From Escherichia coli (GTDB lineage: Bacteria; Pseudomonadota; Gammaproteobacteria; Enterobacterales; Enterobacteriaceae): DNA of 64,000 nt. The notes under the pieces were generated by a model. That model searched no databases and was not told the DNA's origin. It saw nothing but the letters and a program-made list of their open reading frames with translations. A program made the position numbers and the translations under genes. Numbering within the stretch: the stretch's first letter is position 1; each line of letters opens with the position of its first letter. The stretch is from assembly GCF_050920415.1 (NCBI RefSeq), contig NZ_CP169309.1. One strand, given 5' to 3'. Positions 35,998-39,165 of this stretch are shown in pieces.

Positions 35998-37131
35998 TTA
36001 AACCGTCAACACCACACAGCTGTCCACTTCCCAGCACAAACGCACTTCGTCGCCCCAGGTCGGTAACCCTTTGCGATAACGATGGGCGTTTTGTAGCTGG
36101 GCGCTAATCATCTGCCCGCTTTTTAGACGAACGTGATACACCGAAAGATCGCCGAGATAGGCAATGTGCATCACCTCCCCTACCGCGAAGTTACAACCAT
36201 TGGCGGGCGGCTCCTCGCAGAGCATGATTTTTTCCGGACGCAGCGCCACATGCACCGGCACGTTATCGACCACCGAAGCATCTACATCAACTTTCAGTGG
36301 ATGCACCAGCCCCGGCGAATAAAGCACCAGACCATCTTCCTGACGCTCTTTGAGTACACCTTCAAAGACGTTTACCGAACCGATAAATTCAGCGCTATAG
36401 CGGGTGGTCGGATGCTCGTAGATCTCTTCCGGCTCGCCAATCTGGACAAATTTCCCACGATTCATAATGGCGATACGCCCCGCCATGGTCATCGCCTCTT
36501 CCTGATCGTGGGTGACCATCACACAAGTCACACCAACGCGCTCCAGAATATCCACCACTTCAAGCTGCATCCGGTCACGCAATTTTTTATCCAGCGCGCC
36601 CATCGGCTCGTCGAGCAGTAATAGTTTTGGGCGCTTGGCAAGGCTTCGGGCCAGTGCCACACGCTGTCGCTGACCGCCGGAAAGCTGATGCGGTTTGCGT
36701 TTGGCGAACTCCTGCATATGCACCAGCCCAAGCATCTCATTGACCCGGCTGGCAATTTCTGCTTTCGGCAGCTTGTCCTGTTTCAGGCCAAAGGCGATGT
36801 TCTGCTCCACGGTCATATGCGGAAACAGCGCGTAAGACTGAAACATCATATTGATAGGGCGCAGGTAAGGCGGCACCTGTGATAAATCGACGCCATCGAG
36901 CATAATCTGCCCGGCAGAAGGTTGTTCGAAACCTGCCAGCATACGCAGCAGCGTGGACTTGCCACAGCCGGATGCGCCCAGCAGCGCGAAGATTTCGCCT
37001 TTATAGATGGTCAGGCTGACATCATCGACCGCATGCTGACCATCGTAAGATTTAGTCAGATTACGGATTTCTAATAGCGGCGTCAGCGCCTTACGGGTTT
37101 TCGCCTGGGGGCGAGGGATAGCGTCATTCAC
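35998..37131 (-). CDS. potG: Putrescine ABC transporter ATP-binding protein PotG
   Basis: 377 aa from GTG at 37129-37131 (N-terminus NDAIPRPQAKTRK...); Walker A GASGCGKST, LSGGQRQR. Confidence 0.94.
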   Translation of the reverse strand: MNDAIPRPQAKTRKALTPLLEIRNLTKSYDGQHAVDDVSLTIYKGEIFALLGASGCGKSTLLRMLAGFEQPSAGQIMLDGVDLSQVPPYLRPINMMFQSYALFPHMTVEQNIAFGLKQDKLPKAEIASRVNEMLGLVHMQEFAKRKPHQLSGGQRQRVALARSLAKRPKLLLLDEPMGALDKKLRDRMQLEVVDILERVGVTCVMVTHDQEEAMTMAGRIAIMNRGKFVQIGEPEEIYEHPTTRYSAEFIGSVNVFEGVLKERQEDGLVLYSPGLVHPLKVDVDASVVDNVPVHVALRPEKIMLCEEPPANGCNFAVGEVMHIAYLGDLSVYHVRLKSGQMISAQLQNAHRYRKGLPTWGDEVRLCWEVDSCVVLTV

Positions 37132-37225
37132 GGCTGCTCTCCGGCATTGAATGTGTGCAAGCGCACCCTGATGGTGCGAATTGCCGGCGGGTGTGGTGCG
37201 CCCGTCCGGCATCTACGGCTGCGGA

Positions 37226-38338
37226 TTATTTTCCGCTCTTCACTTTGGTCCACGCGCGGGTGCGCACACGGTCGATTTTCGGATCCTGCACTTTCAGAGT
37301 GAACAGCTTCGCACGGACATCCGCAGGCGGGTAAATACCGGGGTTATCACGCACTTCCGCGCTTACCAGCGGCGTAGCTTCTTTGTTCGCGTTGGCATAG
37401 AACACATGGTCAGAGATATGCGCTACGACATCCGGACGCAGCAGGTAATTCAGGAACTGATAAGCTTCGTCTTTATTTTTGGCATCCGCAGGCATGGCAA
37501 ATACATCAAAGAATGCCATCGCCCCTTCTTTCGGAATCGAGAACGAGACATTAACGCCATTCTTCGCTTCCTTCGCGCGGTTTGACGCCTGCCAGACATC
37601 GCCCGCCCAGCCAATAGCGACGCAGATATCGCCGTTTGCCAGGTCGTTAATGTATTGAGATGAATGGAAATAACGAATGTTCGGGCGCAGCTTTAACAGC
37701 AGATCGGTTGCCGGTCCGGTGTAATCATCTGCTTTAGTGCTGTTGGGATCTTTACCGAGATAATTCAGCACGGTAGCAAACACTTCTTCCGGTGCATCAA
37801 GGAAAGAGACGCCGCAGCTTTTCAGTTTTTCCAGATTTTCAGGTTTGAGGATCAAGTCCCAGCTATCGACGGGCGCGTTTTCGCCCAGCACCGCTTTAAC
37901 TTTATCGACGTTATAACCAATCCCGGTCGTCGCCCACATATAGGGCATAGCAAATTTATTGTCGGGATCGTGTTTGGCGACCAACTTCAGCAGTTCCGGG
38001 TCGAGATTCTTCCACTCCGGCAATTTGCTTTTATCCAGCGGCTGGAAAACTCCCGCAGTCAACTGGCGCTCCAGAAAGCTGGCAGATGGAACCACCAGGT
38101 CAAAGCCGGTGCTCCCTGCCATTAATTTGCCTTCCAGTACTTCGTTAGAGTCGAAAACATCGTAGACGACTTTAATACCGGTTTCTTTTTCAAAATTGGC
38201 CACCGTGTCCGGGGCGATATAATCAGACCAGTTATAAATGTGGAGTGTTTTTTGTTCAGCCGCGAGCGTGCCGACAGAGACGGCCATCAGAGCACCCGCA
38301 ACCAGACCCGATAGCCATTTTTTATTTAAGGCGGTCAT
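37226..38338 (-). CDS. potF: Putrescine-binding periplasmic protein PotF
   Basis: 370 aa from MTALNKKWLSGLVAGALMAVSVGTLAAEQKTLHIYNWSDYIAPD...; upstream extension trimmed. Confidence 0.96.
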   Translation of the reverse strand: MTALNKKWLSGLVAGALMAVSVGTLAAEQKTLHIYNWSDYIAPDTVANFEKETGIKVVYDVFDSNEVLEGKLMAGSTGFDLVVPSASFLERQLTAGVFQPLDKSKLPEWKNLDPELLKLVAKHDPDNKFAMPYMWATTGIGYNVDKVKAVLGENAPVDSWDLILKPENLEKLKSCGVSFLDAPEEVFATVLNYLGKDPNSTKADDYTGPATDLLLKLRPNIRYFHSSQYINDLANGDICVAIGWAGDVWQASNRAKEAKNGVNVSFSIPKEGAMAFFDVFAMPADAKNKDEAYQFLNYLLRPDVVAHISDHVFYANANKEATPLVSAEVRDNPGIYPPADVRAKLFTLKVQDPKIDRVRTRAWTKVKSGK

Positions 38339-38396: not shown

Positions 38397-38413
38397 ATGC
38401 AATATTCGTGCAT
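38397..38413 (-). promoter_or_regulatory. Weak sigma-54-like -24/-12 element upstream of potF
   Basis: Minus-strand sequence aTGCACgaataTTGCAt resembles TGGCAC-N5-TTGCA (one G missing in the -24 box), about 60 bp upstream of the potF ATG. Confidence 0.3.
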
Positions 38414-38688
38414 ATTTTTTATCGGCTCGGTGTAAGAAAAGAGAACTCTCTCCCGGCCAGCACTGCTCGCTATATAAAAGCATCGCAAGAATAACTTTAG
38501 CCAGGGTTTGAGACTATAGCTCGGATTAAAAAACGGTATTTAACAAATTTTTATGCGTATTTGCTCTATGTGATAAAGCCAAATCGGCACAAGAGAAGTG
38601 AAATAATCTTTAAGAAAAGGTTAAAAACAGCAGATAATTTTGCAGCACGCAGTCACTGCGGCAGCGACTGCGTGCTCGAAAGGAGTTA

Positions 38689-39165
38689 TCAGTGGAGGAA
38701 ATAGTTTTCGGTAACGTTGTTTTGCCCTTCATCGTCAGTCGGTAACAGCAGTTGATGGGCATTAGCTTCAAGAATGACCATCGAAATCTGCTCTTCGCTC
38801 TGACGCACGAACCATGCAAACTGCTCATAGGTTACGCCCTGCATAACGGATAAAGACTGGCAAACCACCAGCTTTGGCAGATTATCATCCTGCATATCAA
38901 GAAATGCTTTCACGGTCAGCGAACTGGCATTGATGGCTGATAAATCCGCCGCCAGCGGTAACACGGCTGAAGGTCGAACTTCCGCCATGGCAGAAAACAG
39001 GATCGTGTTATCGATCAGATCGATTTTGGCATCAAAGACACCGTCGAAATTCTGCATATGGGGCAGATGCAGAGCCTGACAGTTATCACATTCAAAAAAA
39101 CTCATCCCCAGGTCATCGAGCCATTGACGCAGCGTATCCAGACCAGGAACGACCAGCGATGTCAT
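38689..39165 (-). CDS. ybjN: YbjN (putative sensory-transduction regulator family)
   Basis: 158 aa from MTSLVVPGLDTLRQWLDDLGMSFFECDNCQALHLP... Confidence 0.9.
   Translation of the reverse strand: MTSLVVPGLDTLRQWLDDLGMSFFECDNCQALHLPHMQNFDGVFDAKIDLIDNTILFSAMAEVRPSAVLPLAADLSAINASSLTVKAFLDMQDDNLPKLVVCQSLSVMQGVTYEQFAWFVRQSEEQISMVILEANAHQLLLPTDDEGQNNVTENYFLH

Follow-up and report, generated by a model that had tools for sequence, protein, structure and literature searches.

The region considered here lies in the potFGHI operon of Escherichia coli, within a window of 64 kb (the whole stretch of DNA that was analysed, 64,000 nucleotides), where two adjacent genes on the minus strand are separated by a spacer of 94 nt (37132-37225). 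The potF stop codon TAA occupies 37228-37226 and the GTG start of potG lies at 37131, gene boundaries that the original prediction had placed correctly. The genes and the potG ribosome-binding signal are laid out as follows:

37226 to 38338, minus strand: potF coding sequence, encoding the periplasmic putrescine-binding protein.
35998 to 37131, minus strand: potG coding sequence with a GTG start, encoding the ABC transporter ATPase.
37137 to 37142, minus strand: potG Shine-Dalgarno sequence GGAGAG, 5 nt upstream of the GTG.

A query of 501 bp spanning the site finds a match in 5,416 of 5,426 complete E. coli genomes, with potF and potG annotated there. The stretch of the window between 36950 and 37450 is only 94.4% identical to K-12, and no more than 15 of 5,418 E. 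coli records match it at an identity of at least 99%, which suggests an unusually divergent potF/potG allele or lineage; in the 94-nt spacer, only 4 positions differ from K-12.

An imperfect inverted repeat of 47 nt is present at 37141-37187, as had been described from the sequence. It had been proposed to form one long RNA hairpin in the potFGHI mRNA, serving to stabilise the message or to direct its processing, and so to set the ratio of PotF to PotGHI. When folded alone as RNA, the 47-mer does form this hairpin, at -16.8 kcal/mol (z -2.45; among 200 shuffles, 4 fold equally well), through an outer stem of 6 bp (CCGGCA/UGCCGG) and an inner stem of 6 bp (CGCACC/GGUGCG), and its stability is above chance, yet modest. 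However, the outer stem of the isolated repeat is not retained in its real context. In partition-function folds of 94-, 161- and 241-nt contexts, the pair probability of the outer stem is at most 0.002, and the minimum-energy fold of the spacer consists of two separate hairpins, here termed HP1 and HP2. HP2 is the inner stem of the repeat (CGCACC-AUCAG-GGUGCG, 37162-37178; -9.6 kcal/mol and z -3.9 alone), and has a pair probability in context of 0.85-0.96, while that of the HP1 stem is approximately 0.99. HP1 is a neighbouring element:

37183 to 37210, minus strand: HP1, a REP-like RNA hairpin, GCCGGACGGGCGCACCACACCCGCCGGC, identified from its fold and its pairing in context.

HP1 is built as GCCGGACGGG-CGCACCACA-CCCGCCGGC and folds alone at -16.8 kcal/mol (z -3.0). 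It begins 15 nt past the potF stop and overlaps the 47-nt repeat by only 5 nt, yet its 3' arm is the 5' outer arm of the 47-mer, such that HP1, which is also transcribed earlier, captures the CCGGC that the outer stem would need. The cost of forcing the outer stem within the spacer fold is 3.1 kcal/mol, and the small size of this difference speaks for the long hairpin. A ribosome-dependent switch between HP1 and the outer stem was considered and rejected, on the reasoning that the stop codon, 15 nt from HP1, is probably too distant for a terminating ribosome to open the hairpin.

Another point in favour of a long hairpin is conservation: neither outer arm varies within Escherichia, and CCGGCA also occurs in Citrobacter and Leclercia. 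However, the 3' outer arm, UGCCGG (37141-37146), shares 2 nt with the Shine-Dalgarno sequence and lies within GCCGGAGAGCA, a motif present in nearly all Enterobacterales spacers, including those that have no upstream CCGGCA. Since the 3' arm is kept in genera that lack its partner, its conservation is explained by the ribosome-binding region. Furthermore, an Rfam scan of 36500-38000 with E values up to 10 returned no match, and a scan of the minus strand of the spacer for terminators returned no terminator-like site; the tails that follow HP1 and the inner hairpin, AUUCGCACC and CUUGCACAC, contain no U-tract. A literature search likewise found nothing on transcript 3' ends, stability or processing in the potF-potG spacer, and the Term-seq supplements searched list neither potF nor potG. 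Overall, we judge the long hairpin highly improbable as a functional structure.

The inner palindrome matches the binding site of the nitrogen regulator NtrC (GlnG), and is accompanied by a weaker second match:

37162 to 37178, no strand assigned: NtrC box 1, a 17-bp dyad, CGCACCATCAGGGTGCG in mRNA sense, recognised from the consensus and from published binding, and equal to the inner stem plus loop of the 47-mer.
37143 to 37159, no strand assigned: putative weak NtrC box 2 or half-site, TGCACACATTCAATGCC in mRNA sense, beginning 19 bp after the start of box 1.

Box 1 has the form CGCACC-N5-GGTGCG, and the exact core GCACC-N5-GGTGC is found just once in the 64-kb window. Scored over the 14 specified positions of the 17-bp NtrC consensus TGCACCAnnnTGGTGCA, as quoted in PMC8743547, box 1 reaches 11/14 in the window and 12/14 in its K-12 version, CGCACCATTATGGTGCG. 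Box 2 scores just 8/14, and box 1 is probably paired with this weaker half-site 19 bp downstream.

Binding of NtrC to this spacer is already known from two published data sets, which we mapped onto the present coordinates. NtrC ChIP-seq with induced, tagged NtrC (Aquino et al., PMC5217608, Additional file 4) shows a peak spanning 893859-894438, its summit at 894191, ranked 10 of 62, exceeding the peaks at yhdW, patA, astC, nac, ddpX and rutA, and representing the sole NtrC peak in the pot locus (892-895 kb). With potF at 893784-894896 in NC_000913.3 and a 777-bp offset to U00096.2, the converted U00096.2 centres of box 1 and box 2 fall at approximately 894175 and 894194, so that the summit lies between the two centres and inside box 2. 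Shimada et al. (2021, PMC8743547) report an NtrC gSELEX peak of 95% at 894130, in the potF-potG spacer, and an EMSA in which NtrC retards a "potG" probe; the primers for this probe take in the last part of potF, the spacer and the first part of potG. A ChIP-seq study of NtrC at native level in nitrogen-starved cells (Brown et al. 2014, PMC4066584, Table 1) lists 21 regions, none of which is at potF-potG. On the strength of the ChIP-seq, gSELEX and EMSA results, the inner palindrome is an NtrC DNA site.

The distribution of the box across species is in keeping with this identity. In a one-genome-per-species scan with PotG, which yielded 25 Enterobacterales loci, boxes scoring at least 11/14 number 12 in 3,202 nt of potF-potG spacers versus 2 in 134,689 nt of flanking sequence. 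Such a box occurs in 11 of the 12 Enterobacteriaceae loci, namely those of E. albertii, two Citrobacter, Kluyvera, two Enterobacter, the Enterobacteriaceae isolate RIT691, a soil MAG, Leclercia, Superficieibacter and Mangrovibacter, the spacer of Pseudocitrobacter having none at this threshold, and in none of 11 other Enterobacterales loci, which come from Pantoea, Erwinia, Rahnella, Yersinia, Brenneria, Acerihabitans, Gilliamella and a Pantoea-like MAG. The box of the soil MAG is a perfect 14/14. In 9 of 11 genera box 1 is followed by a left half-site, YTGCMC, which in 8 of them keeps the identical 19-bp offset, and Leclercia carries two 11/14 boxes at 19-bp spacing. The start of the box lies approximately 27 nt from the potF stop in one group of loci and 46-80 nt in another, with RIT691 at 121 nt; because its placement with respect to the local hairpins thereby differs between the groups, the box does not belong to any one RNA architecture that is conserved throughout.

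Across 16 aligned boxes the GCAC/GTGC core is nearly invariant. Of the pairs of the inner stem, the outermost is the only one to change on both sides (C-G to T-A), and 5 of the 16 boxes have lost the innermost pair with no compensating change. The substitutions seen in box 1 among E. coli and E. albertii lie, with one exception, in the central N5. Judged by these alignments, the conserved property of box 1 is sequence identity and not merely pairing, bearing in mind that a formal covariation test cannot tell a DNA palindrome from an RNA stem, and that neither the inner-stem test nor that for HP1 is decisive. As the palindrome also folds in the mRNA (-9.6 kcal/mol), it may have an additional RNA role. 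In the spacers of Enterobacter, Pseudocitrobacter, Kluyvera and RIT691 (L007, L024, L004 and L008), a second conserved palindrome, TATGGC(N)ACCGGGCCATA, lies approximately 30-50 nt ahead of potG; it is absent from E. coli, and may be a protein site or an RNA hairpin.

Given that the inner palindrome is the NtrC site, that the 5' outer arm belongs to HP1 and that the 3' outer arm belongs to the potG ribosome-binding region, the complementarity behind the 47-nt long hairpin is coincidental, and the hairpin is no functional unit. We consider it probable, with good confidence, that the repeat merges these three overlapping elements.

The character of HP1 bears on a further explanation, under which the whole region would be a decayed cluster of REP/BIME palindromes without locus-specific function and the match to the NtrC consensus would be fortuitous. 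HP1 has in common with REPs the sequences GCCGGA and CCGGCA, as well as the following element:

37213 to 37216, minus strand: GTAG tetranucleotide, a hallmark of REPs, 5' of HP1 and aligning with the GTAG of REPs.

As reference we used the window elements at 31310-31396 and 32329-32426, which are canonical REP/BIME elements (e.g. GCCGGATGCGGCGTGTACGCCTTATCCGGCCTAC) in two intergenic stretches approximately 5 kb downstream of the pot operon. HP1 scores 33 in alignment to one of these REPs, compared to 24-55 for REP against REP, and aligns better than shuffles do (p 0.001-0.02); its similarity to the window REPs is modest. Leclercia has an unmistakable REP at the position of HP1. However, a REP consensus search of the window allowing up to 3 mismatches found nothing at the spacer, and the many genomic copies that a REP family member should have were absent, with a blastn median of 1 place per E. 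coli genome (using a 43-nt query of limited sensitivity). The K-12 RefSeq tables list no repeat feature at the spacer, though such tables may omit REP features altogether. Since HP1 is single-copy and fails the REP consensus search, we describe it as REP-like without counting it among the REPs. The reading of the region as decayed REPs is also contradicted by the NtrC binding, which has been measured and not only predicted, and by the recurrence of the box in genera whose hairpins are unrelated and differently placed relative to it. Consequently, we regard this explanation as extremely improbable, and retain the view that the repeat joins an NtrC site, an arm of HP1 and the potG ribosome-binding region.

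Among E. coli, one strain carries additional sequence at this place: in strain 7CC (L084:1377-1500), the interval from the potF stop to HP1 has gained approximately 110 nt, by insertion or substitution, that contain the palindrome CCCTCTCCCCAAAGGGGAGAGGG, with the NtrC boxes and the ribosome-binding region intact and no copy in the window. The insert looks like a small mobile or repetitive element, and counts in favour of the decayed-REP reading. The GTAG 5' of HP1 is replaced by TTAG in O157, O145 and 2014C-3061. The HP1 alleles of O157 and E. albertii differ at 5 to 10 of 30 aligned positions and still fold, at -21.1 and -10.3 kcal/mol respectively, and a count of HP1 pairs within Escherichia, which is not a decisive test, gave no supported compensatory change. 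The HP1 loop GCACCA was considered as a third NtrC half-site and rejected, being kept in Citrobacter and not in O157 or E. albertii.

Local structure after potF recurs across the order. All 24 Enterobacterales spacers examined have strong structure there (mean z -2.9 against dinucleotide shuffles, with 17 of 24 below -2), and in Pantoea, Rahnella, Erwinia, Yersinia, Pseudocitrobacter and Gilliamella the spacer contains a terminator-like hairpin followed by a T-run. Such recurrence of a structured element behind the binding-protein gene agrees with the classical REP or attenuator paradigm. The suggestion that a stem-loop stabilises the mRNA at this junction does not suit the 47-mer, whose outer stem does not persist in context, but fits HP1 better in stability, position and recurrence. 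From its position, its stability and the recurrence of structure in other genera, HP1 is a plausible stabiliser or 3'-end barrier for potF mRNA.

A separate question is which promoter the NtrC boxes serve. The nearest sigma-54 promoter is that of potF:

38398 to 38413, minus strand: potF sigma-54 promoter ATGCACGAATATTGCA, approximately 1.2 kb upstream of the boxes.

This promoter corresponds to the sigma-54 ChIP-seq site OS08 (TATGCACGTTTATTGCA; Bonocora et al. 2015, PMC4591121), and is the strongest gSELEX peak of the sigma-54 holoenzyme (PMC8743547). Its -24 element reads TGCA versus the canonical GGCA, a deviation kept in all 12 Enterobacteriaceae loci (L002-L011, L023 and L024). The long perfect hairpin GAGCACGCAGTC...GACTGCGTGCTGCAAAATT at 38650-38692 on the minus strand, directly after the ybjN stop and ahead of the potF promoter region, probably serves as the terminator of ybjN.

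The published work assigns the boxes to potGHI, as activating sites of an internal NtrC/sigma-54 promoter that would drive these genes separately from potF. In PMC8743547 the peak is given as potGHI, sigma-54 holoenzyme together with NtrC yields a gSELEX peak of 45%, the holoenzyme shifts the potG probe, and nitrogen depletion raises potG mRNA 6.0-fold and potI mRNA 3.2-fold. The label of a potGHI promoter draws on the 45% peak, on this induction and on proximity; the induction would also follow if the potF promoter were the target. Moreover, the usual geometry, with an NtrC site 100-150 bp upstream of its promoter, is not found in the E. coli spacer, where no GG-N10-GC site scoring at least 8/12 exists within 500 bp of the boxes on either strand. 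The distance of approximately 40 bp between the centre of box 1 and the potG start codon leaves no space for a loop and a promoter, making an NtrC-activated promoter between box and gene geometrically implausible. The sigma-54 ChIP-seq tables contain no site at 893.9-894.3 kb (Bonocora et al. 2015, PMC4591121), and holoenzyme alone shows gSELEX binding only at the ybjN-potF spacer, with no peak between potF and potG (PMC8743547). A literature search for an internal promoter and for sRNA or UTR data at potF-potG returned nothing relevant. A sigma-70 promoter-like sequence, TGGACC-16-AATAAT (37252-37225, minus strand), is composed of the conserved codons for WTKVKSGK-stop, and we take it to be a by-product of these. 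Taking both sides into account, we judge the internal promoter unlikely in E. coli.

Other genera provide closer approximations to such a promoter. In Citrobacter werkmanii (L006:2452-2467), the right half of box 1 and the left half of box 2 together form TGGTGCGTTATTTGCA, a motif with correct GG-N10-GC spacing that matches 10/12 of the sigma-54 consensus, and which counts in favour of the internal promoter; however, the corresponding junction in E. coli is 3 nt shorter. Judging from its sequence, the box-junction motif may be what lies behind the shift of the potG probe by sigma-54 holoenzyme in PMC8743547. In RIT691 (L008:2309-2324), a near-consensus sigma-54 motif, TGGCACTCTTTTTGCC, is found 16 nt past the potF stop and approximately 100 bp upstream of the NtrC box, and this lineage may have a real internal potGHI sigma-54 promoter.

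For E. coli, we tentatively favour the possibility that the boxes are a remote downstream enhancer of the potF promoter, at approximately +1.2 kb, acting by looping with the whole of potF in the loop. This reading draws on four observations: only one NtrC peak is seen at the locus, no good NtrC box exists upstream of potF in any of 23 loci, there is no promoter near the boxes, and box and promoter occur together. With respect to the last of these, all 12 Enterobacteriaceae loci carry the potF sigma-54 motif TATGCAYG-N4-TTGCAT ahead of potF, whereas the other Enterobacterales loci (at least 10) lack it, matching the phylogenetic distribution of the spacer box, a correlation that is confounded by shared ancestry. 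Action at such a distance has precedent, as Reitzer and Magasanik are said to have found in 1986 that NtrC sites function at kilobase distances on either side of glnAp2. The assignment of the boxes to the potF promoter appears in no paper found by our literature search.

A potential scheme for the locus can be proposed on this basis. Phosphorylated NtrC on the inner palindrome (37162-37178) would couple putrescine uptake through potFGHI to nitrogen limitation via sigma-54 RNA polymerase. As the potF promoter is the only sigma-54 promoter of the locus, the boxes would most likely be a remote enhancer inside the transcription unit, acting on that promoter approximately 1.2 kb upstream, and an elongating polymerase would have to pass its own activator. 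Just past potF, HP1 would serve as a stabiliser or 3'-end barrier for potF mRNA, and the 3' outer arm of the 47-nt repeat would simply be part of the conserved ribosome-binding region of potG.

More generally, conservation of a palindrome between cistrons does not by itself make it an RNA element; it may, as here, be a transcription-factor site that is also transcribed, in this instance one that ties putrescine uptake to the nitrogen-starvation response; the appearance of a long hairpin arose from complementary arms that belong to a neighbouring hairpin and to the ribosome-binding region. If the potF promoter is indeed served from 1.2 kb downstream, the site would represent a natural long-range enhancer inside a bacterial transcription unit, and would also account for the finding of no NtrC site upstream of potF.

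Three known systems offer points of comparison. Intra-operon intrinsic terminators or attenuators are resembled by the hairpins with T-runs in the potF-potG spacers of the six other genera named above, whereas the E. coli hairpins differ in having no U-tract. REP/BIME elements at positions following binding-protein genes protect upstream mRNA from 3' exonucleases, and the stem-loops at malE-malF and hisJ-hisQ are reportedly the paradigm, attributed to Newbury et al. in 1987 and Stern et al. in 1988. HP1 resembles these in being a GC-rich imperfect palindrome with GTAG, directly 3' of a binding-protein cistron and without a U-tract, but differs in that it matches the consensus loosely and is single-copy; the 47-mer is another element. 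Finally, compared to the NtrC sites of glnAp2, glnHp2 and nac, the potF-potG boxes are unusual in being intercistronic, inside a transcription unit, and in lying approximately 1.2 kb downstream of the sole sigma-54 promoter and not 100-150 bp upstream of one, with none in the 500 bp that follow. Yet they share with those sites a dyad of 17 bp on the TGCACCAnnnTGGTGCA pattern, a strong site with a putative weaker one beside it, NtrC binding in vitro and in vivo, and an operon that is induced by nitrogen limitation and has a sigma-54 promoter.
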